Positions 5,927 through 55,900 of a DNA stretch of 64,000 nucleotides are shown in pieces. Both the position numbers and the translations under genes were made by a program. Each line of letters starts with the position of its first letter. Position 1 is the first letter of the stretch. Source of the DNA: Eledone cirrhosa (Eukaryota); the NCBI GenBank assembly GCA_964016885.1, contig OZ024746.1:51832001-51896000 (forward strand), given 5' to 3'. Below the pieces are notes generated by a model, which did not search any database, was not told the DNA's origin, and worked only from the letters and a program-made list of their open reading frames with translations.

Positions 5927-9949
<4,023 letters not shown>

Positions 9950-10193
9950 TTTTCTTTATTAACCACAAGGGTTCACATAAAGTAGACATTAAGGACAGTA
10001 CAGGACAATACAGGACGGTACAAATGGGCATTTCTGCGTGTAAAAAAAAACAGAGGTTGAAATAAAATAACAAAGAAAAATTCCCCAATAGGGGGGAGAC
10101 TTCCAAGGGACATTTGTGGAGAAAGCCCATTAAAAGACCACAGTGGCCCTGACCACCAGGGCAAGTGCCCTCTCCCAGTTTTCCACCTTTAAT

Positions 10194-13613: not shown

Positions 13614-13647
13614 GTTGAAAAGGAGTGGAAAAGATGGGAAAGACCAC

Positions 13648-15647: not shown

Positions 15648-15855
15648 TTTTTTTCAAAGAAATTTTTTGATAATAATAAAAGTTAAAATTTTGGGCACAA
15701 GGCCCCAATTTTTTTGGGTGTCCTTTTCGGAAAACAATGTATGTGTGCTTATAAACAGTTAACAATAAAATTTTCCATAAATGGCAATTTTTAACAAACG
15801 GAAATAACAAACCTTTGCGGAGCTCACGATGATACGATTTACTACGTAGGTCGCC

Positions 15856-15909
<54 letters not shown>

Positions 15910-15910
<1 letters not shown>

Positions 15911-20197: not shown

Positions 20198-20202
20198 ATA
20201 AC

Positions 20203-20251
<49 letters not shown>

Positions 20252-20252
<1 letters not shown>

Positions 20253-25100: not shown

Positions 25101-25130
25101 ATAACAATAACAATAATAATAATAATAATA

Positions 25131-28100: not shown

Positions 28101-29100
28101 AAGTCCCATTTACTGCTGAAATGGAAAACACAGAAAAAGCAAAGCAGGTAAAAGTAACTGCAAAGAAAGAACTGCTACAGAAACTGGCTAAGAAATGGCA
28201 AGAAAAGCCTCTGTATGGAAAATACCCAGAGCGAGCTAACAATCCTGATGTTGACAAAACTTTAACCCATCAGTGGTTGGCATCCTCTGGACTGAAATCG
28301 GAGACTGAAGGACTGATTATATCAGCACAAAATCAGTGTCTGCCAACAAAAAATTACCAAGCCAACATAATAAAAAATGGGTGCAGCCCATTATGCCGTG
28401 TATGCAAAAAACAACCAGAGACCATTGACCATATAATTTCAATGTGCAGTCCTATAGCTCCAACCGAATACCTAAACAGGCATGACAGAGCTGCACAATA
28501 CATACATTGGATAATGTGTAAGCATTTTGACCTGCCCCATCAAAAGAATTGGTGGCAGCATCAACCACCTCCCATACTTGAAAAAGATCACATCTCAATC
28601 TTGTGGAACTTTAGCATCCAAACAGACCGAAAAATAGATGCAAATAGACCTGATATAATATTGAAGGACTTTCAAAGGAGGGTATGCCTGCTAATTGATA
28701 TGTCTGTTCCAATAAACAAGAATGTATCTATAAAAACATTTGAAAAATTGAGCAAGTATAAGGACCTGGAGATAGAAATTGGAAACATGTGGAAATTGAG
28801 AACTAAAACAATATCAGTGGTTGTAGGCGCTCTGGGAATGATACCTAAGGGGTCTAACGACTACTTATCGCAAATCCCAGGAAACCCGCGTATAGGAGAA
28901 ATACAAAAGATAGTACTAATGGGATCTGCCCATATACTAAGGAAGATCCTGTCAATATAAGTACATCACAAGTCTAAACACTAAGGATGCATGTGTGAAT
29001 ATGTATGTTCTTTCTTGAACATGGCGGACCTTGTTGTCTCTTGAGGTCACTGGTTGTGACTTGGTGATAACTCGTATGAACATAAAGCAAGATAAATGCA
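25131..29100 (+). pseudogene. R4/Dong family B, full length but disrupted
   Basis: ORF pieces 25314-26114, 26177-26548 and 26618-28960 (YMDD, CRVC..HIISMC, RHD, RPDIILKD). Frameshift near 26110 and stop at 26546-26548. AT-rich and diverged from family A; ends in (AAT)n. Confidence 0.9.
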
Positions 29101-29120
29101 AATAATAATAATAATAATAA

Positions 29121-31248
29121 CAATGACTGCTTGGTGTCGGGTGAGGTGCCAGAGTGGTTGACAAAAGGTACCACAGTTCTGATAATGAAAGACCGAATCA
29201 AGGGTAATGATGTTACCAACTATAGACGTATCACATGTCTGTCCGTAATGTGGAAACTGTTGACGAGCATTGTGTCTGAGGAAATCTACCATCACCTCCA
29301 CACAAACAACTTGTTACCGGACGAACAGAAAGGATGCCGAAAGAAGTCACGTGGTACAAAGGACCAGTTACTTATTGATAAGATGGTAATGGGGAATTGC
29401 AGGAGGAGACACACTGATCTTGCCATGGGATGGATAGACTACAGAAAGGCATTTGACATGGTGCCTCATTCTTGGATCACCAAAAGCCTGGAGATCTTCA
29501 AGGTGGCAGATAACATCAGACAGTTGCTGGGCAGGAGTATGGGGTCCTGGGAGACAGAGTTGACATCAACTGGAGAATCCTTGGGAAGCGTGAAGATCAA
29601 GAGAGGTATCTTCCAGGGAGATAGCCTGTCCCCTCTGTTGTTTGTCCTTGCCCTGATGCCCTTGACCATTATGCTGCGAAAAGTGAGAGCAGGATACAAG
29701 TTGGGAAAGGGAGAGCTTACCATCAATTAACTCCTCTTTATGGACGATCTTAAGCTCTTCGGGAAGAGTGAGAAGGAGTTGGATGTGCTTGTTGACACTG
29801 TCCGTATTTTCAGCAGTGATATATGTATGCAGTTTGGTATTAGTAAGTGTGGAGTCATTGTGATGAGGAGGGGTAGGTTGAGCAGAAGTAACGGAATCCA
29901 AATACCAACAGGTGAGATGATAAAGGAAATTGACTCTGAGGAAGGATACAAGTATTTGGGCGTTCTGGAGGCTGATGGCATAAAGAACAAAAAAATGAAG
30001 GAATTGTTAAGAACTGAATACATTCGGAGAGTAAGGAGCGTATTGAAGTCACATCTGAACAGCAGAAATGCCATAAGCGCAGTAAATTCCCGAGCTGTGT
30101 CCATTATTAGGTACAGTGCGGGAATTCTGAGATGGAATGTTGCTGAACAAAAAGAAATGGATAGGAAGACTAGGAAGCTATTGACTATCTACAACATGTT
30201 CCACAAGAGGAGTGATGTCGATAGACTCTACCTAAGGAGATCTGAGGGTGGAAGAGGTCTCATCAGCATAGAGGACTGTGTTCAGATGGAGAAAAACAAC
30301 CTATACAAATACGTGACTGATAGTAAGGAGCCAATGCTCAGAACTGTACTGAAGGAGGGGACGATAGGCCAGGGGATGTCCAAGGAGGAAATAACATCAA
30401 AGAGAAAGAGCAGCCTTCAGGGAAAATCCCTTCATAGTACCTTCTTTGAGAAAACTGAATTTAGAGATCCACAGATATGGAACTGGTTGAGAAGAGGAGA
30501 CCTCAAAAAGGCTACAGAAGGAATGTTAATGGCTGCGCAGGAGCAGGCCCTCAAAACGAAGTGGTTGAAACACCATATTTACAAGGAGGAGGCTAGCCCA
30601 CTGTGCAGGATCTGTGGAGAGAGAGAGGAGACTGTGGCTCACATTGTATCCGAGTGTAAACACCTAGCCCAGACCCCCTATAAGGGCTGGATACATGATG
30701 TGATGGGCAGGGTGATCCACTGGCACCTGTGCAAAGTAAACAATTTACCACATTCTGAGAAATGGTATGAGCATAGGCCAGAGGCGGTGATGGAGAACGA
30801 TCAGGTGAAGGTGCTGTGGGATTTTAGGATACAGACGGACAAGAAACTGGAACACAATAGACCTGACCTGGTGGTTGTGGACAAAGAAAAAAGATCGTGT
30901 CTGATTGTGGATGTGGCCTGCCCATTCGGCACGAGAGTGCAAGAGAAGGAGAGGGAGAAAATTAACCGATACCAGGACTTAAAGTGGGAGGTAAAAAGGA
31001 TTTGGAACTGCATGAAGTCAAAGTGATCCCGATTGTCATAGGCGCACTGGGGACTATCTCCAAAAGTTTCCAGGGATGGTTAAACAAAATCGGCCCCTTC
31101 ACGCTTTTTGGAACGCTTCAAAAGGCATGCTTGCTGGGAACAGCAAGAACCCTCCGATACGTCCTGAATATCTGAGGCTGCAGGTAGTGGCTTGATATTC
31201 ATTCCAACGGACTTTCCAGTTAACCAACATCAATGACTGAGATTCAAG

Positions 31249-31250
<2 letters not shown>
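29121..31250 (+). pseudogene. Dong family A copy 3, 5'-truncated with stop (29728-29730) and frameshift (~31010)
   Basis: Matches family A from CAATGACTGCTTGG onward with scattered substitutions; same 3' UTR + (AAT)n. Confidence 0.92.
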
Positions 31251-31298
<48 letters not shown>

Positions 31299-31305
31299 GT
31301 AATAA

Positions 31306-32524
31306 ATATATGTATGCAGTTGGGTATTGGTAAATGTGTAGTCATTGTGATGAGGAGGGGTAGGTTGAGCAGAAGTAACGGGATCCAGATACCAACAGGT
31401 GAGATGATAAAGGAAATTGACTCTGAGGAAGGATACAAGTATTTGGGCGTTCTGGAGGCTGATGGCATAAAGAACAAAAAAATGAAGGAATTGTTAAGAA
31501 CTGAATACATTCGGAGAGTAAGGAGCGTATTGAAGTCACATCTGAACAGCAGAAATGCCATAAGCGCAGTAAATTCCCGAGCTGTGTCTATTATTAGGTA
31601 CAGTGCGGGAATTCTGAGATGGAATGTTGCTGAACAAAAAGAAATGGATAGGAAGACTAGGAAGCTATTGACTATCTACAACATGTTCCACAAGAGGAGT
31701 GATGTCGATAGACTCTACCTAAGGAGATCTGAGGGTGGAAGAGGTCTTATCAGCATAGAGGACTGTGTTCAGATGGAGAAAAACAACCTATACAAATACG
31801 TGACCTATAGTAAGGAGCCAATGCTCAGAGCTGTACTGAAGGAGGGGACAGTAGGCCAGGGGATACCCAAGGAGGAAATAACATCAAGGAGGAAGAGCAG
31901 CCTTAAGGGAAAATCCCTTCATAGTACCTTCTTTGAGAAAACTGAATTTAGAGATCCACAGACATGGAACTGGTTGAGAAGAGGAGACCTCAAAAAGGCT
32001 ACAGAAGGAATGCTAATGGCTGCACATTCTGAGAAATGGTATGAGCATAGGCCAGAGGCGGTGATGGAGAACGATCAGGTGAAGGTGCTGTGGGATTTTA
32101 GGATACAGACGGACAAAAAACTGGAACACAATAGACCTGACCTGGTGGTTGTGGACAAAGAAAAAAGATCGTGCCTGATTGTGGATGTGGCCTGCCCGTT
32201 CGACACGAGAGTGCAAGAGAAGGAGAGGGAGAAAATTAACCGATACCAGGACCTAAAGTGGGAGGTGAAAAGGATTTGGAACTGCCATGAAGTCAAAGTG
32301 ATCCCGATTGTCATAGGCGCACTGGGGACTATCTCCAAAGGTTTCCAGGGATGGTTAAAGAAAATCGGCCCCTTCACGCTTTTTGGAACGCTTCAAAAGG
32401 CATGCTTGCTTGGAACGGCAAGAACCCTCCGATACGTCCTGAATATCTGAGGCTGCAGGTAGTGGCTTGATATTCAATCCAACGGACTTTCCAGTTAACC
32501 AACATCAATGACTGAGATTCAAGG
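31306..32524 (+). pseudogene. Dong family A copy 4, 5'-truncated with 213-bp in-frame internal deletion
   Basis: Junction ATGGCTGC|ACATTCTGAG at 32023/32024 skips the sequence equivalent to 19483-19695. Confidence 0.92.
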
Positions 32525-32563
32525 AATAACAATAACAATAATAATAATAATAATAATAATAAT

Positions 32564-32812: not shown

Positions 32813-32854
<42 letters not shown>

Positions 32855-32858
<4 letters not shown>

Positions 32859-33629
32859 TTAGAAACACACAGATACATGCGGACACACACATATACATGA
32901 ATGCATCCGCACCCAACCGTGAGTTAAGTGTGCCAACTTCACCGATGTTGCTCAATGAATGACTGGGACAGACCAATCCGGTTTAACCAGACTGAACCAG
33001 TATCAGAGTTAAAAATACATTATGAAGAGAGAAGAAACATTTAGATATAATTAGTAATAAAATGTATCATACCTAAACTGCTCCTAGATTCCTCGACTAC
33101 GTAGTTTCGTGGCATAAACAAAAACAATACATCATAAAGATATAGAGTCCTTGCGAGGTCTGCCGACTTATCAAGAGGATACCTCATTTTACTAGTCTCA
33201 AGAACGCGTCTACACGACGTGAGAAAGAATCCCAAAAGGCGGAGGGGGAGATAGTCACGCGATATAACGGTCGAGAAACAGAGCTAAGCCTCTTATAACC
33301 CCGAAGAAAATACCACGGAGGCGGAGGGGGTATTTATATCGAAGCCGTAGAAGAGGTGGTGAAGGGGGCGAGAAGTATGAGTAATGGAAGCTTTCCAGCA
33401 GTCCCCACACTTCAAAGATTGCTCGACCAGAGGGAGTTATTAACAATATATTTAGAAACACACAGATACATGCGGACACACACATATACATGAATGCATC
33501 CGCACCCAACCGTGAGTTAAGGGTGCCAACTTCACCGATGTTGCTCAATGAATGACTGGGACAGACCAATCCGGTTGAACCAGACTGAATAATTATTACT
33601 AATTATATCTAAATGTTTCTTCTCTCTTC

Positions 33630-34499: not shown

Positions 34500-34825
34500 A
34501 CTCACCACACAACATCACACCCCGCTACACAGACAGTCTTACACCACTGTACACCACGCCACCACACCGTACCACACTACTTCACCACCACACCGTATCA
34601 CACTACTACACCACCATTCTACACCACACCACCACACCGTACCACACATCTACACCACCACTCTACACCATACCAGCACACCGTACCACACTACTACACC
34701 ACCACTCAATACCACGCCACCACACCGTACCACACTACTACACCACCACACCGTACCACACTACTACACCACCACACCGTACCACACTACACCACCACCA
34801 CTCTACACCATACCACCACACGACA
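34500..34825. repeat. Degenerate CACCA/CACTA-based minisatellite
   Basis: Repeated CACCACCACACCGTACCACACTACTA units. Confidence 0.9.
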
Positions 34826-35208
34826 CAACAGACATAAGCAGATGATCGCCTCTCACCTAAAAATCCACCACCTCCACTTCGCCGTACCTGTTCCTTTTCC
34901 TACACTTCTTGCTCCTCATCCTTCTCTTCTACCTCGTCCTCCTCATACTTTCCTACCTCGTCCTCTTCCTCCTTCTCCCCCCCCCTCCTCCTCCTTCTCC
35001 TCACTACAGATGTATTTAACATGTTTTTATCAACTAATTCACTGATTTCTTTCACATATGTATCTGTCTTTCTCATCTCACTTTATTATTTCACCCCCAC
35101 CTAACTACCTCTCCAGCTTCTTATCTAAATATCAGTCTTTTGTATTTATCTACCTTTCCTCCCACCTTACTTCTTATCTATCTATCTATCTATCTATATA
35201 TCTATCTA

Positions 35209-35241
<33 letters not shown>

Positions 35242-35253
35242 CAATCTATCTAC

Positions 35254-35285
<32 letters not shown>

Positions 35286-35322
35286 ATCAATATATCTATC
35301 TATTATCTATCTATCTATCTAT

Positions 35323-36053
35323 AGTTCGAGACAAGCTCTACAGGCACGGACGCCCGGGCTGAGATCCCGCAAAAAGGATCTGTCCGAGATACGAGCGGGA
35401 CATTGAAACCGTCTCGCACGCAGTCGTACACTGCCCGGGCGTAACCGACCTGTGGAGCTACGTAGAGCGACTACTGTCACGTGTGGGACAAATACAGTTG
35501 ACCGCCGAGTCCATAGTTAGAATAAAATCGCCCCCCCCCCCCCCCCCCTTAAAAACGAAGGAGAGGCGGTTTTTCTCTGTATGGTGGCTATGGCAAAAGA
35601 GGTAATATGGTGGACGAGATTGAGAGGGCTGAGGACAGATGCCTTTCTCTCCGGACAACAAACTATTACCTTCTTTAAATACCATTTCAGAAGGAACATA
35701 AGAGTGGAGAGAGAAGCGCTGCATCCCAGCCAATTTGCTGAAAGGTGGGTGAATGTAGCGAAAATGGCCCGAGTGATTGGGCCTTCTCTGTATATAAACT
35801 TATAGGCCAAGGAAGAGGAAGAAAGGAGGAAAGGAGCACTTGCACTCCGTGCTCCTGGAGTTGAGGGTTGTTATTTCTACGGGGTATGCAACAACCCGTA
35901 GAAGCGCCTCCGCCTTATTGCGGATTTCGATTGTTGATTTGCTTTGTTAAACTGTTGTTATTTTCATTTCTTACTCGACTACATGTAAAATCCCCGCTAT
36001 ATGTCATTGTACTGCCCCATAGGTTGTCGCCCTTGTGGCTAATAAATAGAAAT
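35323..36053 (+). pseudogene. 5'-truncated Tx1-clade copy within (TATC)n
   Basis: Encodes the ORF2 C-terminus (AKEVIWWTRL...FAERWVNVAKMARV); 3' end CCCTTGTGGCTAATAAA; TATC repeats on both sides. Confidence 0.88.
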
Positions 36054-36154
36054 GTATCTATCTATATCTATCTACCTATATATATCTATCTATCCATCCA
36101 TCCATTCATCCCATACATCCACCCATCCAACTATCCATCCATCCATCCATCCAT

Positions 36155-36215
<61 letters not shown>

Positions 36216-36340
36216 AAAGTTCTATTTAAAGTTGTTGGGATACAAGTAAATATTTTTATAACTTATATAAAGCACTCGACAATTTTTTGGAGTAGATATA
36301 CGATATTAATAAATGGAAACTATATTTATAAAACCATATT

Positions 36341-36405
36341 TATTTCATTATACATATTTCAGGGATACCACATTAAATTATGGTATGCCTTCATCAGACA
36401 AAATA
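36341..36405 (-). ncRNA. Minimal type I hammerhead ribozyme (Penelope pLTR type)
   Basis: Minus strand: TATTTTGT-CTGATGA-AGGCATACCATA-ATTTAA-TGTGGTATCCCT-GAAA-T-ATGT-A-TA-ATGAAATA. Intact core; stem I 8 bp (2 GU), long stem II, 2-bp stem III, AUA cleavage triplet. Confidence 0.75.
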
Positions 36406-38424
36406 CAATATATAACAGTTTTACAAATAGGTTTGACGTACCCTTTAAAATACAACCATTACTTTTGGAGGCTGTCTGGATAGTGATTTGTTTATATAAT
36501 AAGTCATAGTGTTAAGCACAATTAGAAAAAGGCGGAGAGAAAGAAAGAGAAAAGAACAAAGACAGAGAGAGAGAGAAAGAAAAGAGAAAGAAAACCTGGA
36601 GAAATATCGGAGAGAGAGAGAAATGTATGGAGAAAAGAAAGAGATAAATAAAGATAGGAGGAAATAAAAAAGAAAGAAAAGGAGGGAATAAGAAAAACAA
36701 AGGAAAGCCACAGAGAGTTATCAAGTCATCATACAGAAAGAGAAACTCAAGAGAGAGAAATACTATATAGAGAAAGGGGGACAGTGACAACTTTACGTCA
36801 TGTCATATTAAGTTGAGTTAACAATTTATATGAAATGAATAATAAAAATATAAATATAAGTATCAATATTCATGAATGGGACATAGATATATAATATGAG
36901 AAATTAAACATTGTTCAATAATGACCATATGTTTAGTTTAGAAACTTGAGATCAATATACCAAAACCTGAGTTCCAAATGTAACCTTGCTATAGAGATTA
37001 GTATTTTATGCAAAGACATACAAATATATATGTATATATACATACATATAGATACGCACGTCCTGAAAATAGAAATTATGTTTACTCAAGCCAACAATAT
37101 AGCCATACAAAACGTAAATGATTTCTCTTAATCACTGCTATACACTCATTGTGTTATAAAAATTTCACAGTATATATATATATACAAATATATACGATTA
37201 ACAATCATGTCCTCATATATACGATTACCATTCATGTGTTTATATATATAAGGCAGTTTACGTGTATATCTGTATGTGTATGTATATACATATATACATG
37301 TTACTATTAGCGAACTCTAAAATGAGTATTCAGTATCATAGATATTAATTCTTTATTAAGGCTGATCCTGATGCCTATTACTTTGGAGTTTTACTGTTAC
37401 TCCTGACAGTCTATAACTGCCACACCTGAGTATGTATATCTGTTAGAACACGAAAAGTGTGAAACAACAGAATGTTCACTTTTCGTGTTCTAACATATAT
37501 GCGTAGCTTCTTAAAAAATTTTTCAGGGATAGCCGTGGTGGTGGTGATCGTATGTCATTGGCTAATTTTCAACCAATCAGAGTACCTCTCTCTATATCTC
37601 TTCCACTGTTACTTACGCCTGTTTCTCTCTATCTGTTCCGTCTCTATATATATCTCTTACTCTTTCGCTTTGCACTCCTCCCCTTCAATACCATCTCTCC
37701 CCCTCTCTATATATTTGTTACTCTATCGCTGCACGCTCCTCTCCTTCAATATATCAATTACACACGCTTTACACTCCTTTATCCCCAGCGCCCCTATATA
37801 TACACCCCCCCTCTCCCGCATCTATATTTTAATGTACCGTTGCACCGTGAATATATGTGTCTATATATATATACATATATATTGTATATACACATTCATG
37901 TATGTGTATACACACTCATGTATGTATATACACTGGTTTTATGTGTGTATTGTAAATTTGTACTGTTAAAACACGAAACTAACATTCGATTGACACTTTG
38001 ATTACCTGTACAGGCAATAGTTATTAGAATGCTGTTGAAGTGTGTATATATTTTTGGGGGACATCCTGTATATACACACATTATATATAATACAATAAAC
38101 AGATAAATACACACATATATATATGAGCTTATTTAATTATAAATATTGTGAATTTTTAACTCAGTTCAATTATATATATAAATGGTTTCTACAGGACTAG
38201 AACTGTTTCATTCGAAAGAAATCATCATAATATTGAGAGGGGGGACTAGATAAAATATTTCAAATCAAATGTGTATAAGTTATAAGTTAAAATGTATAAA
38301 TAGAGACGATAGTGGAGGTATATCTGTTTAGTGGAACAGTAGACGATAGAATTAAATACAGACGATAATCTCCCTTTAATGAAACAGCAGACGATAGAAT
38401 TAAGGCAATTTAAATTTTAAGCAT

Positions 38425-38485
38425 TTGCATTTTTGCCTTTCATCGTTACGGGGTCGATAAAATAAAGTACCAGTAATACACTGTC
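38425..38485 (+). mobile_element. SINE family 1 fragment
   Basis: TTTGCCTTTCATCG..ACGGGGTCGATAAAATAAAGTACCAGTAATACACTG. Confidence 0.65.
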
Positions 38486-38852
38486 ACTAGACGACTTTCA
38501 AATTGAATTGTTGGTTCCATTTCTTTAGTATTTTCAATTGTAGTTATCTACTTAAAAAGCGTTACACGGTTAGAGACATAATTCGTAAGTTATATCTTCC
38601 CTATTAAACCATTGCATTATTTCGCCTACAATAGAACAAAAATGAAATGTTCTTTAAAGAAACAGGAATATAACTTTATAAAAAAAAAAGTTGCATCCGC
38701 TTCTTTTATCATTGATAATTTTTTCGTTTTAATATTAATTGTTTTTTGTAGTTGTTTATATTAAAAATCTTACTGTAATATTTACTTAAACGAAGGCAAA
38801 CATCTAAACTTATAGATTAATCTTGAGCGAAGGACTAGATAAATCTCTCTCC

Positions 38853-38893
<41 letters not shown>

Positions 38894-39269
38894 AACGAAG
38901 AATGATAAAATTTCAAGCAAAGAGTTTAATTAGGTATATTTTGTAATATTATTAACTAATTATTATAATTAACGCGCATATTTTGCTATCCTCAAACACG
39001 TTTACACATGGCATGAAATATAACTAATCCGAGATGGCTAGGTTTCATCTTCTAACTGGATATACGAAATCCATTATGTCTTGACAACAACATGAGGTAA
39101 CATTATGTTATTCACAGACACACTTTGTACACTGTTCCATATCAGAATGTATTTCCTTCGTCACATTCACAAACAGTATTGAAAATATGTTCTTCGGCAA
39201 ATAAAAATGTTTTGTTCATAATATTTCAACTAGCGATTGCTCTACTCCACGCACGACCACCATAAATTA

Positions 39270-39460
39270 ATGACCAGCTCAACACAAGTATTGGTAGAGT
39301 GTCAGACACCATGCTTTGCAGTATTGTTATGGTCCTTTGCATTCTAAGTTCAAATCCTGCCGAGGTTAACTTCGACTTTCATACTTACTAATTCGATAAA
39401 ATAAAGTACCAGTAATGGACTGCCGTAATGGATTTGTGCCGAAAAATAGAAACACTATTA
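39270..39460 (+). mobile_element. SINE family 1, degenerate
   Basis: TTCTAAGTTCAAATCCTGCCGAGGTTAAC...TCGATAAAATAAAGTACCAGT...TTGTGCC. Confidence 0.7.
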
Positions 39461-40010
39461 ATGTGCAATAAGAGCAAAATATAACGACATTGCTCAATTA
39501 TTTTATCTAATGTTGTAATAACACAAGGAAATGTTGTTTGTGTATTTTTTTTTATATTTGCTCATAGGCTTTTACAATTTCGCTCAGCCAACAACTATTA
39601 AAAAGTGAGTTGCTTAAGATAACAATTTAATCACAAATTGTTGCTATCTTTTAATACACTCCAACAAGTCATCAAATTATGTACAATAAAAACAAATCTT
39701 ATTAATTTGCTCAGGGAATATAAAGAAAATGTATATACACTGATAATTGCAATTGTATGTAAATATTTTGTTTTTGTATTGTATATTTTATGTTTTCTAT
39801 TATGTATAATATATTGATTTAATATTGATTGTTTTTTGTAGTTGTTTATATTAAAAGTCTGAAAATATTTTTATACATCTTACACTAATATTTATAAGAT
39901 AATTTATAATAACAATTACATAATCTAATTACATTACAACGATAATTTATTATTAATATATATCCTGTTTAACTAGAGTTATTACAAGCGTTGCCTTAAA
40001 AAAATATTAA

Positions 40011-40967
40011 ACTAGACATGAAAAATGCGCAAGCTCAAAAGTGCCACAGAATGTTATAATAAACCTTCAAAAGTGTGGGACTAGAGTTGTTGCTAAAAAA
40101 TATTGTAATCATTATATATCGTACATTCTGTGGCATCCTTTATAAAAATAGCTTGAACCAACGAAGCCTTTATTTTTACGCTATTTCACTTAGTTAATTC
40201 TTAGAGTGTAACATATAAAAATAAATACATCTATGTTTAATGTAATAACAGCTATAAATAATTACGTAATATTATTATCATATACTCATAGTAACAAAAT
40301 AATTGTGTTGAAACTTAATATGATGCTTATATGAACGATCAAATCTATAATGATAATTTCTTAAATATACTAATAGTAAAATAATTTAGTTATCTATTGT
40401 TACATTTTCATAGAACTATAATATTAACAATCGTATTGCATTATCAAATTTTTATCACTACAAACTTTCATATTGGAATTACCTTAAGCCACTTATTATT
40501 ACTTCGCTTTCGTACTTTTACAGCTGTAGATATTGCGCTGTATCTTATATCTAATATCAATATCTCGTGGTAATTTGCATGAAGTGTAAAATAGGTTTAT
40601 TAATAACTTTAATATGAAATGTATTATACAGGGCTGCGGAGTCGGCCAAAAATTGACTGGCTCCAACTCAGGATCCGATACTCCATTATTTCCTAAATTT
40701 CAGCTCCGCAGCTCTGTTATTATATTAATTAATTTATTTTATAGTTGTAAATGATATTTTTATATGTTACACTCTAAGAATTAACTAAGTGAAATAGCGT
40801 AAAAATAAAGGCTTCGTTGGTTCAAGCTATTTTTATAAAGGATGCCACAGAATGTACGATATATAATGATTACAATATTTTTTAGCAACAACTCTAGTCC
40901 CACACTTTTGAAGGTTTATTATAACATTCTGTGGCACTTTTGAGCTTGCGCATTTTTCATGTCTAGT
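40011..40967. repeat. 213-bp inverted repeat with 531-bp spacer
   Basis: 40011-40223 is the reverse complement of 40755-40967; no mismatch seen by eye. Confidence 0.92.
40629..40716. mobile_element. 88-bp hAT-like mini-MITE
   Basis: TIR CAGGGCTGCGGAG / CTCCGCAGCTCTG; 8-bp flanks GTATTATA / TTATTATA. Confidence 0.7.
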
Positions 40968-41068
40968 ATATATATGTGTGTGTGTGTGTCTGTCTGTCGG
41001 TCTGTCTGTGAGTCTGTGTCTGTGTGTATATGCATATATATCTATCTATCTATATATATATATATATA

Positions 41069-41262
41069 ACAAAGGAATTGTGGTAAGGAACCAGATGGAC
41101 CATAACGCACCAGAGTACTCAATACGTAGGGTAGTAGAGTGGGAAATAGGAAAAAGTATGACCCCGACGGCAGATCTCAAGCCGTTTCGACGGCTATTTC
41201 TGCACTCAGAAATAGCCGTCGAAACGGCTTGAGCTCTGCCGTCGGGGTCATACTTTTTCCTA
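41069..41262. mobile_element. Tail+hairpin fold-back element, copy 3
   Basis: Arms 41147-41202 / 41207-41262 (1 mismatch), loop CACT; same unique segment as 1281 and 33711. Confidence 0.85.
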
Positions 41263-41272
41263 AATATATATG

Positions 41273-41342
<70 letters not shown>

Positions 41343-42429
41343 TGTCTGTGTCTGTGTGTCTGTGTGTCTGTGTGTGTCTGTGTGTGTCTGTGTGTGTCTG
41401 TGTGTCTGTGTGTCTGTGTGTGTCTGTGTGTGTCTGTGTGTGTCTGTGTGTCTGTGTGTGTGTCTGTGTGTATATTCATATATATATATATATATATATG
41501 AATATAATTTCAGCGAGATCGTGTTTCGGCTGTGGTCAATACCAAAGCGAAACGCAGTTTTCGAGATATGCGGCAAGCGCTCAATGGACTAAAAGAAGTT
41601 CAGAGCAATTAACATACGTTATAGAGGCCAGACAAACTGGGAACGGCGGTCCTGAAGTTATCAGCCACCGGAGCCAAAAAAAACGAAGCAAGCTAAACAG
41701 GTGTATGTATATGTGTGTATGTAAACTACCAGAATGATGTGTGTATGTATATGTGTGTATGTAAACTACCAGATTGATTAGGCTGAAAAGTAGATATAAA
41801 TTGACTCAAATGATTCTAACTGAAAGCATATTCAGTTTAATAGAACACTCGGATTTCTCTTGAAATATTATCATTTGTATATGAAATAAAAGAAAACGTT
41901 TTCAAAAACGTTTATAGCATTCTGTTGTCTAGTGTAAAATGCTACGGATGCGCACTCAATATGAAAAGTATTCTTCATGTATAAACTACATTTATTTAAA
42001 TGACAGATTGCTTAATTAATGTGTATTATCTATATATAAATTCGAGCGACTTCCGTCCATCCGTCTCACAATGTGTGTGCGTGCGTGTGTGTGTGTATGT
42101 GTGTGTGTGTGTGAATGCATTCGTGTGTAAAAGGAAGGAAGGGGATGGTGAAAAAACTATAGCAAAACAGCGGCTGGCATTCATTTGCTACGCTGTGTGT
42201 GTGTGTGTGTGTGTAAATGTATGTGTGTGTGTAAATGTATGTGTGTGTGTGTGTGTGTGTATATGTATGTGTGTGTGTGTGAATGTATGTGTAATGTGTG
42301 AATGTTGATTGTGTGTATGATTGTGTGAATGTTTGTGTGAATGTTTGTGTGAATGTATGTGTAAGGTATGTCTGTTAGTGTGTATTTTTGTAAGTGTGCT
42401 TGCGTTTGCGCGTTTATATTTATATACTC

Positions 42430-42680
42430 ACTAGCTGAATTACCCGGTGTTGCCCGGGTTACTGCTGTTCTTATTCAGATTAGTAAACAATAAATATGAA
42501 GATATGTTTTTTTTTCTCATAATTATTTCAAAATATCTATATTTTATTTTTTTTAAATATCAAAATTGTAATAATGATAGAATTTAGAAATGAAATTCTG
42601 TCAATCTTGAAGCACCTTAGGGTAAACAATATTCATTGTGTAATTTTTTGTTCGTGTCCAAATGAATAAATTGTTGCACA
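42430..42680 (+). mobile_element. Short Helitron/HINE-like element
   Basis: Starts ACTAGC...TACCCGGTGTTGCCCGGG as at 1897; followed by CA-rich microsatellite. Right boundary is uncertain. Confidence 0.45.
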
Positions 42681-43314
42681 TACACTCTCACACACACACA
42701 CTCACACACACACACTCACACACACACACACTCTCACATACACTCTCACATACCTATACTAAGACAGACACTCTCACATACACTCACACACACTCTCACA
42801 TACACTCACATACATTTACTAAGACAGACACACACAAACATACATTCACGCACACTATCTGTCATCAGATATGTATCTGTATATGTAGATGTGTGTGTGT
42901 GTGTTTAATTGTATATATATATATGTGTAGACGTGTGTGTGTGTGTTTAATTCTCTGAGGCCTAACGAATGTAACGAACTCGCAAACACACACACACACT
43001 CACAGACACTCATATACAATGTGATATCATCGTCGTCATCGTGGTGATTGTGGTTTACTATAGTTCACTATGGAAAGGTTATTTTAGATAGAATATTATA
43101 TTTTTTTAATCCAAATGAAAATTAAAATTACCCTGTTGACACTCCCGGGGTCTAATACTATTACCTTGTAAAATGTGTTTTTATTTGGTCCAGCCAATTG
43201 AGGATACATAGGAACAGACAGACAGACAGACAGACAAACAAAGAATTTCATATATATAGAGATACATATAAATATATGCATACACAATCGCACACACATA
43301 CACACACGCATCGG

Positions 43315-44240
43315 AGACTGAGGTCTCAAGATCAATTAAAGAGCTCAAATATGGCAAGGCCGCTGAGGAAGATGAAATCCGGCCCGAGATGTTGAAAGGC
43401 TTTCTCTGGTTGAGTCGTGTGTGACGGGTGGCCTGGATTTCTGGAAAGGCACCTAAGCAATGGCAATCGATAGAGACAAGAGAGATTGCTCCAGTTATAG
43501 AGGGATCTCCTTGTTAAGCTTCCCCAGTAAAGTCTATGTTAAGTGTCTGACAAAGAGATGTAGAAATATTGTCGAATCAAAGATAGAGACGAAGAGTGCG
43601 GCTTTCTCCTTGGACGCAGCACAACCGACCAATATTCATACTGCGGCAGATCTTCGAGAAATCGTGGGAGTATTGCCAAGAGGTGCATGCTTGTTTCATA
43701 GACATTCAAAAGGCATATGACCACATTCCACGAGACTTATTGAGGGAGGTTCTGTAGGAGTATGGGATCAATGGACAACTTGTTGCCCTGATTTCTCTAT
43801 ATGAAGGCCCTTGTATTTGTTTTCGGATAAATGGGACTAAGTCGAAACCATTCAACGGGGTTGTCAGATTCTGTCAAAGGTGCGTACGTCACCTCTCCTG
43901 GTGATGGACAGGATTGATAAGCGCTGGTATCACAACTGGTAGATGTATAATCAGTTGGCTGTAATTTTCGGGCGATATGGCATTACTTAACATCGTCAGA
44001 AGGTCATCTCCGACATGTACTTGATAGATTTGCTGCCGAGTGCTGCACAGCTGGAATGAAACTCAGTGCTGCGAAGACTGAGACACGTGTCCTCTCAAAG
44101 AAGCCTGCGCAGTGCATTCTACATATGAGTGGAGTTACAGTGAAACAGGTAGAGAATGTATGTCGGGGCCGTGTTCACGAGTGATGGAAGGCAGGAGGCT
44201 GAATTAAGTGCAAGAATTGCAGAAGTTGATGCAGTAATGC
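43315..44240 (+). pseudogene. Decayed RTE-clade (Expander/Rex3-like) RT fragment
   Basis: Across frameshifts: LKYGKAA.EDEIRPEMLK, CSSYRGISLLSFPSKVY, GRSTTDQ, LRQIFEKSWEY, FIDIQKAYD. Confidence 0.8.
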
Positions 44241-44290
44241 AGATAGACAGACCGACAAACAGACAAACATACAGACAGATAGACAAACAT

Positions 44291-44349
<59 letters not shown>

Positions 44350-44350
44350 T

Positions 44351-45576
44351 ATTTCTTTATTAGCCACAGGGGCACAAAAGAAGGGGACAAATACAAAGGG
44401 GGAAGTTTACATACAATAAAAACGTGTAAAATGTTATCACAGATGGAATTTAAAAGTTAGTCGATTTTCCCCAATAGAGGGAGACAGTTTATATGGGTAA
44501 CACAGACCCCCGAAAAAAATGTGCAACCCTCATCTCCAGGAGTACGAAGAGCTTGTACTCCTTTCCTCTCCTCCTCCTTTTCCTCAACCTACAGGCTGAT
44601 ATAGAGAGAAGGCCCATTCACTCGGGCCATTCTCGCCACTTTCACCCACCTTTCATAAAACTTGCTGGGGTACAGCACCTCTCTCTCCATCCTGATTCTT
44701 CTTCCAAAGTGGTATTTGAAAAAAAGAATCAGTTGTTGGCCGGAGAGAAAGGTGTCTGACCTCAGCCCTTTCAACCTTGTCCACCATACAACCTCTTTCG
44801 CCATAGCTATCACACAAAGGAAAACCGCCTCTCCTTCGTTTTTGAAGGAGGGTGGCGGTTTGATCATGACAATGGACTCGGTGGTCAACTGGATTGGTCC
44901 CACCCGCGACAATAGTCGTTCCACATAGCCCCACAGGTCAGTGACGCCCGGGCAGTGTATGAATGCGTGCGCGACGGTTTCTTCGTCTCGCACGCACCTC
45001 TGACAGATCTTTTTTGCAGGGTCCCTGCCCGGGCGCCCATGTCTGTAGAGCTTGTCTCGAACTGGTAGAGCTCCTCGGTAGCACTGCCAGGCCAGGGACT
45101 TTTGGAAGTTGTCCATCGGTCCCGGGCGGAAGGTCCTACCGAACAGACTGGCCAGTTCATCTTCCTCCACGCCTAGAGTTTCACCGAGCGCGTCGTCGCA
45201 CTTGCTGCGGACCAACCCTCTATAGAATGACGAAGTGGAGTCTCCACTGATCGCCGGGTCCGCCTGCCAGAGGGCTGTGAGCGCCTGAGCACATTCGATG
45301 TGCCAGTCGCCCATTTTCCTCGGTCTCTGCTTGACCCAGGACTGCAGCTCGGTCAGCGAGACGAGTCGTGGGAAGGCTCGCCTCACGAACGGGGCCCACA
45401 CCGGTTGTCCGGTGAGGAATACGTAGAGATGCCGCAGCCTGAGCGCGTGTTTGCGCATCGTCAACCACGGCATCCCCAGCCCTCCGTTAGAAGGGTGTTG
45501 GCAGCAGATGGATCTTCTTACCAAAGGAGCCCGCCTCTTCCAAAGGAATCGGAAGAGGGCGCGCTCCATTTTGGCG
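44351..45576 (-). pseudogene. 5'-truncated Tx1-clade copy within (GATA)n
   Basis: Open 326-aa ORF2 C-terminus (44589-45569); GATA repeats on both sides; 3' CCCCTGTGGCTAATAAA. Confidence 0.92.
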
Positions 45577-45607
<31 letters not shown>

Positions 45608-45608
<1 letters not shown>

Positions 45609-46536
45609 TTATTTGCCACAAAGGCGTACAAAATTGGAACATTACAAGACGTGACGGCGTGGGTTTTACATAAAATCTTTAACAATAATGAATAACAATA
45701 AACTATATATAAAATAAAACAATCGAAATCCCCATTAGGGGGGAACGTTACTGAGGGGTTGTTTTACATCCCGTGGATAGAACAACCCTCAATACCAGGA
45801 ACACGTTTTGTAGGTGTTCCCGTCTTCCCCCTGTTTGTCTTCTTCAACTTACGGGTTTATATACAGAGAAGGTCCATTCACTCGGGCCATTTTCGCCACA
45901 TTCACCCACCTTTCAGCGAATTTACTGGGGTGTAGAACCTCTCTCTCCACTCTCACCTTCCTTCTGAAGTGGTTCTTAAAGAAGGAGATGAGTTGTTGTC
46001 CGGAGAGTAAGGTGTTTGCCCTCAGTCCTTTTAACCTCGTCCACCATATTACCTCTTTCCCCATAGCCACCAGACAGAGGAAAACCGCCTCTCCTTCGTT
46101 CTTAAATGAAAGCGGCCGCGTGATCCTCACGATGGACTCGGCTGACAACTGGATGCGTCCCACACGTGACAGCAGTTGTTCGACATAATTCCACAGGTCG
46201 GAGAACCCTGGGCACTGAACAATTGCGTGCAGGACGATTTCAATGTCCTGTTCGCATCTTGTACAGGTCCTTTTGGCAGGATCTCTGCCAGGGCCTGTAG
46301 ATTTTGTCTCGGAGTGGTAGAGCTCCTCGGTAACACTACCAGGCCCCTCTGGAAGTTATCCATAGGCCCAGGACGGAAAGTCCTCCCGAACAGACTGGTC
46401 AGTTCGTCATCCTCAATGCCTAGTTTCGCCGAGAACGTCGTCGCACTTATCCTCCACTAATCCCCTATAGAATGACGAAGTGGAGTCTCCGCTGATTGCC
46501 GTTTCCGCTTGGTAGAGGGCTGTGAGCGCCTGAAGG
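45608..46536 (-). pseudogene. Second 5'-truncated Tx1-clade copy within (GATA)n
   Basis: ORF2 C-terminal pieces 45849-46163 and 46127-46363; GATA repeats on both sides. Confidence 0.88.
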
Positions 46537-46857
46537 AGATAGATAGATAGACAGATAGATAGATAGATTGATAGATTTATAGATAGATAGGTAGATAGAT
46601 AGATAGATAGACATATAGATAGATAAGAAGTAAGGTAGGTTAGATAGCTAGATAAATATATAGATATTTAGATAAGAAGCTGGATAGGTAGTTAGGTAGG
46701 GTCTGAAATAATAAAGTGAGATGAGAAAGACAGAGATGTGAAAGAAATCAGTGAATTAGTTGATAAAAACATGTGTTAAATACATCTGTAGTGAGGAGGG
46801 GGGTGAGGGGTGAGGAGGGGTGAGATGAAGGGGGGATAATCTACTCATGTCTGTTAT

Positions 46858-49955: not shown

Positions 49956-52900
49956 TGTATTGGTTATGTTATACTTAGTATGGAGTAGTGTATGGCATAG
50001 AATGGTGTATATAGGTGTGTGTTGTATGGTATGGAATTCTATGTATTGGGTATGTTATACTTTGTATGGAGTAGTGTATGGTATAGAATGGTGTATATAG
50101 GTGTGTGTTGTATGGTATGGAATTCTATGTATTGGGTATGTTATATTTAGTAGGGAGTAGTGTATGGCATAAACTGGTGTATATAGGTGTGTGTTGTATG
50201 GTATGGAATTCTATGTATAGGGTATGATATACTTTGTATGGAGTAGTGTATGGTATAGAATGGTGTATATAGGTGTGTGTTGTATGGTATGGAATTCTAT
50301 GTATTGGGTATGTTATACTTAGTATGGAGTAGTGTATGGCATAGACTGGTGTATATAGGTGTGTGTTGTATGGTATGGAATTCTATGTATTGGGTATGTT
50401 ATACTGTGTATGGAGTAGTGTATGGTATAGAATGGTGTATATAGGTGTGTGTTGTATGGTATCGAATTCTATGTATTGGGTATGTTATACTTTGTATGGA
50501 GTAGTGTATGGTATAGAATGGTGTATATAGGTGTGTGTTGTATGGTATGAAATTCTATGTATTAGGTATGTTATACTGAGTATGGAGTAGTGTATGGTAT
50601 AGAATGGTGTATATAGGTGTGTGTTGTATGGTATGGAATTCTATGTATTGGGTATGTTATACTGAGTATGGATTAGTGTATGATATAGAATGGTGTATAT
50701 AGGTGTGCGTTGTATGGTATGGAATTCTATGTATTGGGTATGTTATACTGAGTATGGAGTAGTGTATGGTATAGAATGGTGTATATAGGTGTGAGTTGTA
50801 TGGTATAGAATTCTATGGATTGGGTATGTTATATTTAGTATGGAGTAGTGTATGGCATAGAATGGTGTATATAGTTGTGTCTTGTATGGTATGGAATTCT
50901 AAGTATTGGGTATGTTATACTGTGTATGGAGTAGTGTATGGTATAGAATGGTGTATATAGATGTGTGTTGCATGGTATCGAATTCTATGTATTGGGTAAG
51001 TTATACTTTTTATGGAGTAGTGTATGGTATAGAATGGTGTATATAGGTATGTCTTGTATGGTAAGGAATTCTATGTATTGGGTATGTTATACTTTGAATA
51101 GAGTAGTGTATGGTATAGAATGGTGTATATAGATGTGTGTTGTATGGTATGGAATTTTATGTATTGGGTATGTTATACTTAATATGGAGTAGTGTATGGT
51201 ATAGAATGGTGTATATAGGTGTGTGTGGTATGGTATGGAATTCTATGTATTGGGTATGTTATACTGAGTATGGAGTAGTGTATGGTATAGAATGGTGTAT
51301 ATAGGTGTGTGTTGTATGGTATGGAATTCTATGTATTGGGTATGTTATATTTTGTATGGTGTAGTGTATGGTATAGCATGGTGTATATAGGTATGTGTTG
51401 TATGGTATGGAATTCTATGTATTGTTATGTTATACTTTTTATGGAGTAGTGTATGGTATAGAATGGTGTATATAGGTGTGTGTTGTATGGTATGGAATTC
51501 TATGTATTAGGTATGTTATACTGAGTATGGAGTAGTGTATGGTATAGAATGGTGTATATAGGTGTGTGTTGTATGGTATGGAATTCTATGTATTGGGTAT
51601 GTTATACTGAGTATGGAGTAGTGTATGGTATAGAATGGTGTATATAGGTGTGTGTTGTATGGTATGGAATTCTATGTATTGGGTATGTTATATTTAGTAT
51701 GGAGTAGTGTATGGCATAGAATGGTGTATATAGGTGTGTGTTGTATGGTAAGGAATTCTATGTATTGGGTATGTTATACTTAGTATGGAGTAGTGTATGG
51801 TATAAAATGGTGTATATAGGTGTGTGTTGTATGGTATAGAATTCTATGAATTGGGTATGTTATATTTAGTATGGAGTAGTGTATGGCATAGAATGGTGTA
51901 TATAGGTCTGTCTTGTATGGTATGGAATTCTATGTATTGGGTATGTTATACTTTGAATAGAGTAGTGTATGGTATATAATAGTATATATAGATGTGAGAT
52001 GTATGGTATGGAATTCTATGTATTGGGGATGTTATATTTAGTAGGGAGTAGTGTATGGCATAAACTGGTGTATATAGGTGTGTGTTGTATGGTATGGAAT
52101 TCTATATATAGGGTATGTTATACTTTGTATGGAGTAGTGTATGGTATAGAATGGTGTATATAGGTGTGTGTTGTATGGTATCGAATTCTATGTATTGGGT
52201 ATGTTATACTTAGTATGGAGTAGTGTATGGCATAGACTGGTGTATATAGGTGTGTGTTGTATGGTATGGAATTCTGTGTATTGGGTATGTTATACTGTGT
52301 ATGGAGTAGTGTATGTTATAGAATGGTGTATATAGGTGTGTGTTGTATGGTTTGGAATTCTATGTATTAGGTATGTTATACTGAGTATGGAGTAGTGTAT
52401 GGTATAGAATGGTGTATATAGGTGTGTGTTGTATGGTATGGAATTCTATGTATTGGGTATGATATACTGAGTATGGATTAGTGTATGGTATAGAATGGTG
52501 TTTATAGGTGTGTGTTGTATGGTATGGAATTCTATGTATTAGGTATGTTATACTGAGTATGGAGTAGTGTATGGTATAGAATGGTGTATATAGGTGTGAG
52601 TTGTATGGTATAGAATTCTATGGATTGGGTATGTTATATTTAGTATGGAGTAGTGTATGGCATAGAATAGTGTATATAGTTGTGTCTTGTATGGTATGGA
52701 ATTCTAAGTATTGGGTATGTTATACTGTGTATGGAGTAGTGTTTGGTATAGAATGGTGTATATAGATGTGTGTTGCATGGTATCGAATTCTTTGTATTGG
52801 GTAAGTTATACTTTTTATGGAGTAGTGTATGGTATAGAATGGTGTATATAGGTGTGTCTTGCATGGTAAGGAATTCTATGTATTGGGTATGTTATACTTT

Positions 52901-55900
52901 GAATAGAGTAGTGTATGGTATAGAATGGTGTATATAGATGTGTGTTGTATGGTATGGAATTTTATGTATTGGGTATGTTATACTTAATATGGAGTAGTGT
53001 ATGGTATAGAATGGTGTATATAGGTGTGTGTTGTATGGTATGGAATTCTATGTATTGGGTATGTTATACTGAGTATGGAGTAGTGTATGGTATAGAATGG
53101 TGTATATAGGTGTGTGTTGTATGGTATGGAATTCTATGTATTGTGTATGTTATATTTTGTATGGTGTAGTGTATGGTATAGAATGGTGTATATAGGTATG
53201 TGTTGTATGGTATGGAATTCTATGTATTGTTATGTTATACTGAGTATGGAGTAGTGTATGGTATAGAATGGTGTATATAGGTGTGTGTTGTATGGTATGG
53301 AATTCTATGTATTGGGTATGTTTTATTTAGTATGGAGTAGTGTATGGCGTAGAATGGTGTATATAGGTGTGTGTTGTACGGTATGGAATTCTATGTATTG
53401 GGTATGTTATAGTTAGTATGGAGTAGTGTATGGCATAGAATGTTGTATATAGGTGTCTGTTGTATGGTATGGAATTCTATGTATTGGGTATGTTATACTT
53501 TGTATGGAGTAGTGTATGATATAGAATGGTGTATATAGGTGTGTGTTGTATGGTATGGAATTCTATGTATTTGGTATGTTATGCTGAGTATGGAGTAGTG
53601 TATGGTGTAGAATGCTGTATATAGGTTTGTGTTGTATGGTATGGAATTCTATGTATTGGGTATGTTATATTTTGTATGGTGTAGTGTATGGTATAGAACG
53701 GTGTATATAGGTGTGTGTTGTATGGTATGGAATTCTATGTATCGTAATGTTATACTGAGTATGGAGTAGTGTATGGTATAGAATGGTGTATATAGGTGTG
53801 TGTTGTATGGTATGGAATTCTATGTATTGGGTATGTTTTACTTAGTATGGAGTAGTGTATGGCATAGAATGGTGTATATAGGTGTGTGTTGTACGGTATG
53901 GAATTCTATGTATTGGGTATGTTATACTTAGTATGGAGTAGTGTATGGCATAGAATGGTGTATATAGGTGTGTGTTGTATGGTATGGAATTCTATGAATT
54001 GGGTATGTTATATTTAGTATGGAGTAGCGTATAGTATAGAATGGTGTATATAGGTGTGTGTTGTATGTTATAGAATTCTATGTATTAGTATGTTATACTG
54101 AGTATGGAGTAGTGTATGGTATAGAATGGTGTATATAGGTGTGTGTTGTATGGTATGGAATTCTATGTATCGTTATGTTATACTGAGTATGGAGTAGTGT
54201 ATGGTATAGAATGGTGTATATAGGTGTGTGTTGTATGGTATGGAATTCTATGTATTGTTATGTTATACTTAGTATGGAGTAGTGTATGGCATAGAATGGT
54301 GTATATAGGTGTGTGTTGTATGGTATGGAATTCTATGTATTGGGTATGTTATAATTTATAAGGAGTATTGTATGGTATAGAATGGTGTATATAGGTGTGT
54401 GTTGTATGGTATAGAATTCTATGTATTGTGTATGTTATACTTAGTATGGAGTAGTGTATGGTATCGAATGGTGTATGTAGGTGTGTGTTGTATGGTATGG
54501 AATTCTATGAATTGGGTATGTTATATTTAGTATGGAGTAGTGTATGGTATAGAATGGTGTATATAGGTGTGTGTTGTATGGTATGGAATTCTATGTATTG
54601 GGTATGTTATACTTAGTATGGAGTAGTGTATGTTATAGACTGGTGTATATAGGTGTGTGTTGTATGGTATGGAATGCTATGTATTGGGTATGTTATACTT
54701 AGTATGGAGTAGTGTATGGTATAGAATGGTGTATATAGGTGTGTGTAGTATGGTATGGAATTCTATGTATTAGGTATGTTATACTGAGTATGGAGTAGTG
54801 TATGGTATAGAATGGTGTATATAGGTGTGTGTTGTATGGTATAGAAATGTATGAATTGGGTATGTTATATTTAGTATGGAGTAGTGTATGACATAGAATG
54901 GTGTATATAGGTGTGTCTTGTATGGTATGGAATTCTATGTATTGGGTATGTTATACTTTGAATAGAGTAGTGTATGGTATATAATAGTATATATAGATGT
55001 GTGTTGTATGGTATGGAATTCTATGTATTGGGGATGTTATATTTAGTAGGGAGTAGTGTATGGCATAGACTGGTGTATATAGGTGTGTGTTGTATGGTAT
55101 GGACTTCTATGTATTGGGTATGTTATACTTTGTATGGATTAGTGTATCGTATAGAATGGTGTATATAGGTGTGTGTTGTATGGTAGGAAATTCTATGTAT
55201 TAGGTATGTTATACTGAGTATGGATTAGTGTATGGTATAGAATGGTGCATATAGGTGTGTGTTGTATGGTATGGAATTCTATGTATTACGTATGGTATAC
55301 TGAGTATGGAGTAGTGTATGGTATAGAATGGTGTATATAGGTGTGTGTTGTATGGTATGGAATTCTATGAATTGGGTATGTTATATTTAGTATGGAGTAG
55401 TGTATGGTATAGAATGGTGTATATAGGTTTGTCTTGTATGGAATGGAATTCTATGTATTGGGTATGTTATACTTTGAATAGTGTAGTGTATGGTATAGAA
55501 TGGTATATATAGATGTGTGTTGTATGGTATGGAATTCTATGTATTGTGGATGTCGTATTTAGTATGGAGTAGTGTATGGCATAGCCTGGTGTATATAGGT
55601 GTGTGTTGTATGGTATGGAATTCTATGTATTGGGTATGTTATACTTTGTATGGAGTAGTGTATGGTATAGAATGGTGTATATAGGTGTGTGTTGTATGGT
55701 TTCGAATTCTATGTATTGGTTATGTTATACTATGTATGGAGTAGTGTATGGTATAGAATGGTGTATATAGGTGTGTGTTGTATGGTATGGAATTCTATGT
55801 ATTGGGTATGTTATACTGAGTATGGAGTAGTGTATGGTATAGAATGGTGTATATAGGTGTGTGTTGTATGGTATGGAATTCTATGTATTGGGTATGTTAT

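Follow-up and report, generated by a model that had tools for sequence, protein, structure and literature searches.

Copies of a Tx1-like retrotransposon family in a 64-kb window of Eledone cirrhosa lie in (ATT)n and (TATC)n microsatellites, with the (TATC)n copies forming one clade

Tx1 and R1 are the two site-specific clades among the retrotransposons without long terminal repeats (non-LTR retrotransposons) whose proteins include an apurinic/apyrimidinic endonuclease (APE) (PMC4640811, PMC6007223; PMC3747384 for clade context only). The teleost Tx1-clade families Kibi and Koshi are specific for the microsatellites (TC)n and (TTC)n, respectively (PMC4494074, PMC3812793), and crocodilian Tx1 families (Tx1-1_Crp, Tx1-2_AMi, and others) prefer (TTCC)n or (TTTC)n and are tree neighbours of families that target di- and trinucleotide repeats (PMC4494074). 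Repeats are also the targets of the APE elements Waldo, Mino, SART, TRAS, and R1Bm, which use (ACAY)n, (AC)n, or telomeric repeats, and of Dong, an R4-clade element with a restriction-like endonuclease (REL) that targets (TAA)n (PMC3812793). Pairing of the element RNA with the target at priming has been reported for SART1 and R1Bm (PMC7265360), and in 2013 the recognition of microsatellites by APE-type retrotransposons was described as not well understood (PMC3812793). In Octopus vulgaris, 13 L1-Tx1 and 5 Dong-R4 families are listed as recently active; no target data for them were found in the available sections of the annotation paper or in a search of its supplement (PMC13282606). Here we describe five copies of a Tx1-like family in 64,000 nucleotides of Eledone cirrhosa DNA (contig OZ024746.1, positions 51,832,001 to 51,896,000, hereafter the window), of which two sit in (ATT)n arrays and the other three in (TATC)n arrays.

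The copies were sought across the window by tblastn with the intact second open reading frame (ORF2) of the family and by an nhmmer profile. Neither search gave a sixth copy, and the sole extra match is self-palindromic and lies inside the copy named A1 below. The two copies in (ATT)n are referred to as A1 and A2, the three in (TATC)n as T1, T2, and T3. A1 (9955-15855, minus strand) is full-length, with a 5' untranslated region (UTR) of about 200 nt, an ORF1 that is separate from and upstream of ORF2, and a 3' UTR ending in AATAAA. Its ORF2 (13613-10194, minus strand) is intact and encodes 1139 amino acids with APE, reverse transcriptase (RT), and zf-RVT domains (PF03372, PF00078, and PF13966). 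The other four copies are truncated at the 5' end, and the 3' end is common to all five. A2 (6833-9895, minus strand) is frameshifted and starts near ORF2 residue 200; T1 (35323-36046, plus strand), also frameshifted, comprises the ORF2 C-terminus and the 3' UTR; T2 (44356-45576, minus strand) retains an uninterrupted ORF2 C-terminus of 328 amino acids; and T3 (45608-46536, minus strand) is decayed. The ORF1 of A1 occupies two overlapping frames (15647-15054 and 15237-13648, minus strand), the second with a CCHC knuckle, although ORF2 is intact; the frameshift behind this split may be programmed or may inactivate ORF1. ORF1 matched no Pfam family at the cut-off, and Rfam gave no matches in positions 1-50000 of the window.

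All ten element ends lie within the repeat of their own group and in the same orientation. As the first-pass annotation of this sequence had reported, (TATC)n is found at both junctions of T1, T2, and T3 (3/3) and (ATT)n at both junctions of A1 and A2 (2/2), each read in element orientation. An (AAT)18 array (15856-15909) is the 5' flank of A1 and also the 5' flank of a head-to-head REL-type element, an (AAT)17 array (9896-9948) is the 3' flank of A1 and the 5' flank of A2, and an (AAT)12 array (6788-6825), followed by (TA)35, is the 3' flank of A2. T1 is bordered on its 5' side by a degenerate (TATC)~38 array (35175-35322, plus strand) and on its 3' side by a degenerate (TATC)~13 array (36055-36102, plus strand) that grades into (ATCC)n and (AT)n. 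On the minus strand, a degenerate (TATC)~34 array (46537-46674) forms the 5' flank of T3, a (TATC)8 array (45577-45608) is shared as the 3' flank of T3 and the 5' flank of T2, and a (TATC)~14-19 array (44273-44349) is the 3' flank of T2.

Because the arrays at the 5' junctions of A2 and T2 are the same as the 3' arrays of A1 and T3, only three of the five 5' junctions (A1, T1, and T3) are independent. No element 3' end precedes the 5' arrays of these three copies, which therefore represent pre-existing targets and not tails; the array at 15856-15909, which lies between two 5' ends, is the tail of neither element. Under null models that are rough and post hoc, with backgrounds that include the flanking arrays themselves, the three independent 5' junctions have a probability of 3e-7 if a tail adjoins a site chosen at random and of 3e-4 if it adjoins any microsatellite, and under insertion into any microsatellite the probability that all five copies share an oriented class within their group is 0.006. 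Perfect AGAT/TATC runs number seven below 49.5 kb, of which six are at the junctions of the TATC copies and the seventh is 15 bp long. Arrays of (AT)n, with 21 runs totalling 715 bp, and of (AC)n, with 10 runs totalling 379 bp, are commoner, but no such run directly borders an end of these elements. Target-site duplications are unreadable inside repeats, and the microhomologies at the 5' junctions (0-3 nt by eye) are too few to set the nick register. These observations establish that the family targets microsatellites and inserts into pre-existing arrays.

The copies also end alike. The terminal motif CCYYTGTGGYWAATAAA, claimed in the first-pass annotation to be common to all copies, has five exact matches, each at the 3' end of a copy (0.01 matches expected, and none of 100 shuffles reaches five). 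In every copy the distance between AATAAA and the array is 0-8 nt, and none of the five 3' junctions has poly(A): A runs in the 40 nt that follow reach 3-4 at most.

By the domain content of its predicted proteins, the family belongs to the L1 group of APE-type non-LTR retrotransposons. The A1 ORF2 has an N-terminal APE with the catalytic motifs present, followed by the RT and a C-terminal zinc knuckle, and among PDB proteins it is closer to the L1 ORF2p (184 bits) than to R2 (77 bits). Membership of Tx1 is likely by the best named match: the sole named long database match of ORF2 is a Stylophora protein annotated as 'Transposon TX1 uncharacterized 149 kDa protein' (305 bits, 32% identity), compared with the 184 bits of the L1 ORF2p. 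The Atlas matches are generic APE-RT clusters only and add nothing to the assignment. The preference for multicopy sequence by which Tx1 is recognized (Kojima's rule, more than 20% of flanks) is seen in 2/2 ATT and 3/3 TATC copies, at few loci. The (ATT)n and (TATC)n flanks lie outside the (TC)n/(TTC)n/(TTYC)n targets that characterize Kibi and Koshi, and the APE of A1 is N-terminal, unlike the C-terminal restriction-like endonuclease of Dong/R4 elements, which have no APE. The nearest named homologs of the family are from Argonauta hians and Octopus sinensis, which suggests an octopod host. One database protein (P0012), 60% identical to T2, carries the source label of a Herbaspirillum metagenome-assembled genome, which suggests host DNA contaminating a bacterial bin.

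Comparison of about 460 shared ORF2 bases separates the copies into the same two groups, with DNA identities of 76.5% within the ATT group, 77-81% within the TATC group, and 70-73% between them; in the ORF2 C-terminus the groups are about 67% identical. In a DNA tree of the five copies the ATT|TATC split has a support of 99.9/100 and 29 informative sites, versus 9 for the next split. In each of the ten copy pairs, third codon positions hold most of the differences (24, 16, and 50 at the three positions for T1/T2). This excess indicates that the copies derive from five diverged source elements and not from the decay of one, and therefore that the divergence arose in active source lineages while the target was kept.

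The TATC trio is also a clade when database homologs are added, with supports of 100/100 (18 rows) and 100/99 (16 rows) in two trees, both computed under LG+G4 with no mixture model. The degraded P0017 was excluded from both trees; the second tree also omits the long-branched P0004, P0015, and P0016 and includes P0167 as a new row. P0005-P0007, P0018, and P0019-P0166 were left out of the trees. The proposal that the two groups are sister Tx1 lineages is not upheld by these trees, in which A1 and A2 form no supported clade (p-AU, approximately unbiased test, of 0.052 and 0.126) and fall in an open fork with several homologs. When all five window copies are held as one clade, p-AU is 0.030 and 0.095. 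TATC copies that form a derived subclade inside a wider radiation fit as well as or better than sister lineages.

Two C-terminal strings had been put forward as diagnostic of the TATC group. LSGQQ is present in all three TATC copies and in 0/16 other alignment rows, with LSGQA and LSGQT variants present in database homologs, but SFKNEGEAVFLC is exact in only two of the three, as T1, frameshifted at a poly-C run ahead of it, reads KNEGEAVFLC at that position. The group is marked better by a 12-nt (four amino acid) insertion before the C-terminal zinc knuckle, which is clear in T1 and T2 and is kept in part by T3 across a frameshift. Neither A1 nor A2 has this insertion, nor does any of the 11 retrieved homologs with the RDKL..HG..CxxC motif.

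The TATC copies are associated with an inverted duplication. The segment upstream of the T1 array (34612-35180, plus strand) has an inverted duplicate upstream of the T3 array (47157-46620, minus strand), and the duplicated unit comprises an ACCAC-rich stretch, about 170 bp of unique sequence, and the TATC array. Each arm carries TATC-group copies, and those of the two arms point towards each other. T1 and T3 have paralogous 5' flanks, which match at 155/166 positions of the unique part (93%), and T1 and T2 have unrelated 3' flanks (score of 165 versus a shuffled mean of 167). Co-duplication of T1 and T3 as one element was considered and rejected, given that the elements are 80% identical versus 93% for the flank and have different 5' ends. 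Elements more diverged than their flank and cut at different points favour independent insertions. Conceivably, the T1 and T3 loci go back to an older tandem array that was duplicated and whose two versions later lost different parts.

Among the five copies only A1 has the endonuclease domain (12900-13613, minus strand), with the N8, E38, and Y111 regions and the motifs GDWN 140, SYLDR 199, and TDHK 225. A2 begins just past the hairpin loop of this domain, and T1, T2, and T3 do not include it. The A1 hairpin loop aligns with that of the L1 endonuclease (L1-EN; PDB 2v0s, 2v0r, and 1vyb), including the loop-graft structures LTX and LR1. More distant relatives differ in the length and sequence of this loop. 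Loop grafts are reported to alter specificity, with loop structure and dynamics outweighing loop sequence (PMC1950540). A comparison of loop residues alone would thus not settle the cause of the different targets, because the loop sequence may be a weak readout (PMC1950540).

The reading that we favour, with a probability of roughly 60%, is that the endonuclease sets the repeat preference and that RNA pairing locks this preference in. The copies would then be one young radiation of Tx1-like APE elements that enter microsatellites by target-primed reverse transcription, a process established for the group, with one derived subclade using (TATC)n and the other copies seen using (ATT)n. The APE would nick the strand complementary to the element sense, that is (AAT)n or (AGAT)n. 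Each of these repeats appears to present a TpA step within a comparable R-A-T/A-R context, and a small endonuclease change could therefore shift the target. Canonical cleavage takes place about 10-30 nt downstream of AATAAA, and, with AATAAA so close to the array, the transcript would probably end in a few units of the flanking repeat. These units could pair with the nicked strand and prime cDNA synthesis, which would give seamless junctions; early termination would leave 5'-truncated copies, and repeated insertion into one array would build tandems. Tx1 target choice has been stated to be set mainly by the endonuclease (PMC4494074), and RNA-target pairing has been invoked for R1Bm, SART1, and RTE elements (PMC7265360, PMC6007223).

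Several results weigh against this reading. Neither the monophyly of the ATT copies nor the sisterhood of the two groups has support in the trees with homologs, and a five-tip label test is non-significant, as 94-97 of 500 shuffles do as well (p ~0.19). Five tips are too few to show significantly that flank type follows the ORF2 phylogeny. Lineage is confounded with locus, since the ATT copies lie in one AAT array chain and the TATC copies at one duplicated locus; when T1 and T3 alone are counted, the shared oriented class has p = 0.15. The window contains no TATC-group endonuclease, and none was found among the protein sets searched, where word-index searches and an exhaustive search of representatives gave no full-length TATC-type ORF2. 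The prokaryotic genome collection, searched for stray eukaryotic contigs, yielded no further flanked copies (0/52 pattern matches confirmed, with metagenome and viral contigs unchecked), and 0/14 terminal-motif matches in that collection had homology or a microsatellite.

It is possible, but we consider it unlikely, that the target is inherited through the RNA. One endonuclease would nick both repeats, the 3' repeat of a read-through transcript would set the target, and a single stray insertion into a TATC array would have founded the TATC clade with the endonuclease unchanged. The closeness of AATAAA to the array (0-8 nt) and the short A runs after it (at most 3-4) in all five copies agree with such templating, as would the TpA context that (ATT)n and (TATC)n appear to share. 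RTE long interspersed nuclear elements are proposed to switch target via microsatellite-like 3' ends (PMC6007223), and RNA-DNA complementarity has been named as a possible extra targeting factor for L1 (PMC1950540). However, RNA templating predicts frequent switches, including into the commoner adjoining (AT)n, and the three TATC sources, about 20% diverged, all kept TATC. Endonuclease swaps made by Takahashi and Fujiwara in 2002 are also said to have moved specificity in R1-clade elements. If RNA templating did operate, each transcript would bring along the repeat of its own landing site as a 3' guide; the target would then pass to new copies with the flanking DNA and could change at one insertion event, and a close pair in one genome would make the question of endonuclease versus RNA directly testable.

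Less probable again is an effect of the locus, in which the family targets AT-rich microsatellites broadly (ATT, TATC, and perhaps others) and lineage matches repeat only because of two local hot spots or of copying in tandem inside one array. There are effectively two loci, the T1 and T3 flanks are paralogous, and a 2|3 split matching the tree has p ~0.1-0.2, but the five copies, 19-30% different from one another and truncated at different points, are not local duplicates, and cross-overs are 0/5 though both array types occur in the window. The larger segment upstream of the TATC arrays raises the further idea that the target of the TATC group is a particular dispersed repeat, or a segment present in duplicate, that holds the array, and not (TATC)n as such. 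Both independent TATC 5' arrays follow the same segment of about 570 bp, and Tx1 elements that target transposons are known (Tx1L into Tx1D, crocodilian Tx1 into Mariner; PMC4494074); we nevertheless regard this as very improbable, as T1 and T2 share no similarity in their 3' flanks and T2 has the 3' end of T3 upstream in place of that segment. Untargeted insertion of elements whose encoded 3' tails are the repeats would account for the 5' arrays of A2 and T2 (2/5), which are the 3' arrays of their neighbours. We rejected a tail-only origin, which we consider extremely improbable: the other three 5' arrays face no element tail, the corresponding null is 3e-7, and the arrays of T1 and T3 are long, degenerate, and common to the duplicated segments.

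Compared by description only, Kibi and Koshi resemble the copies described here in being APE-type, Tx1-clade, and microsatellite-specific, with related families on different units, and differ in their teleost hosts and (TC)n/(TTC)n targets, whereas the window has (ATT)n and (TATC)n and two coexisting groups of about 70% DNA identity. The crocodilian Tx1 families share a tetranucleotide target and near relatives on other unit lengths, but their units are pyrimidine-only and those of the window copies are AT-rich with a TpA step. Waldo and Mino belong to the R1 clade. Together with SART, TRAS, and R1Bm they are likewise APE elements on repeats, with RNA pairing in SART1 and R1Bm, but they are of another clade, and SART1 copies end in poly(A), unlike the copies in the window. 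Dong shares the (TAA)n target, and the REL-type copies of the window lie on the same AAT array chain as A1 and A2; the endonuclease class differs, there is a single ORF, and the orientation on the array is opposite.

No report of ATT or TATC as a Tx1 target was found in the literature searched; Repbase, Kojima and Fujiwara 2004, and the target lists in Fig. 3 and the supplement of PMC4494074 could hold such. Related Tx1 families on different microsatellites are already known, and what looks new is the ATT and TATC targets and the close coexisting pair. Groups on period-3 and period-4 repeats that are about 67% identical in the ORF2 C-terminus would offer a close comparison for endonuclease readout versus RNA-primer pairing, which matters for how target specificity evolves and for engineered site-specific integration. 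The list of Tx1 targets gains two repeats and that of hosts a probable cephalopod, and the insertions help explain the shared flanks of some ATT and GATA microsatellite loci.

The REL-endonuclease (Dong/R4-like) elements form a chain separated by (AAT)n at 15910-32563 (plus strand). It includes two full-length copies with an ORF of 1141 amino acids that are 99.9% identical, two 5'-truncated copies, and a second, more distant family at about 25132-29081. They lie on the AAT array chain that also holds A1 and A2, but in the opposite orientation, and thus two endonuclease classes use one microsatellite. The second REL element has a 324-bp tandem duplication (20415-21063) in its 5' region.

Other features of the window include the 5' part of another APE-type element (1-390, minus strand), with a weak PF03372 match and beside a (TAA)n run (354-388), which is probably RTE-like, as judged by a motif. 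A fragment at 5948-6421 (plus strand), with no Pfam match, resembles by eye a Penelope-type GIY-YIG endonuclease in its motif. Positions 32852-32996 and 33445-33589 are a 145-bp direct repeat, 98.6% identical. Finally, an 86-bp satellite occupies 49956-64000 in 163.5 copies with 91% matches and a strong GC skew.

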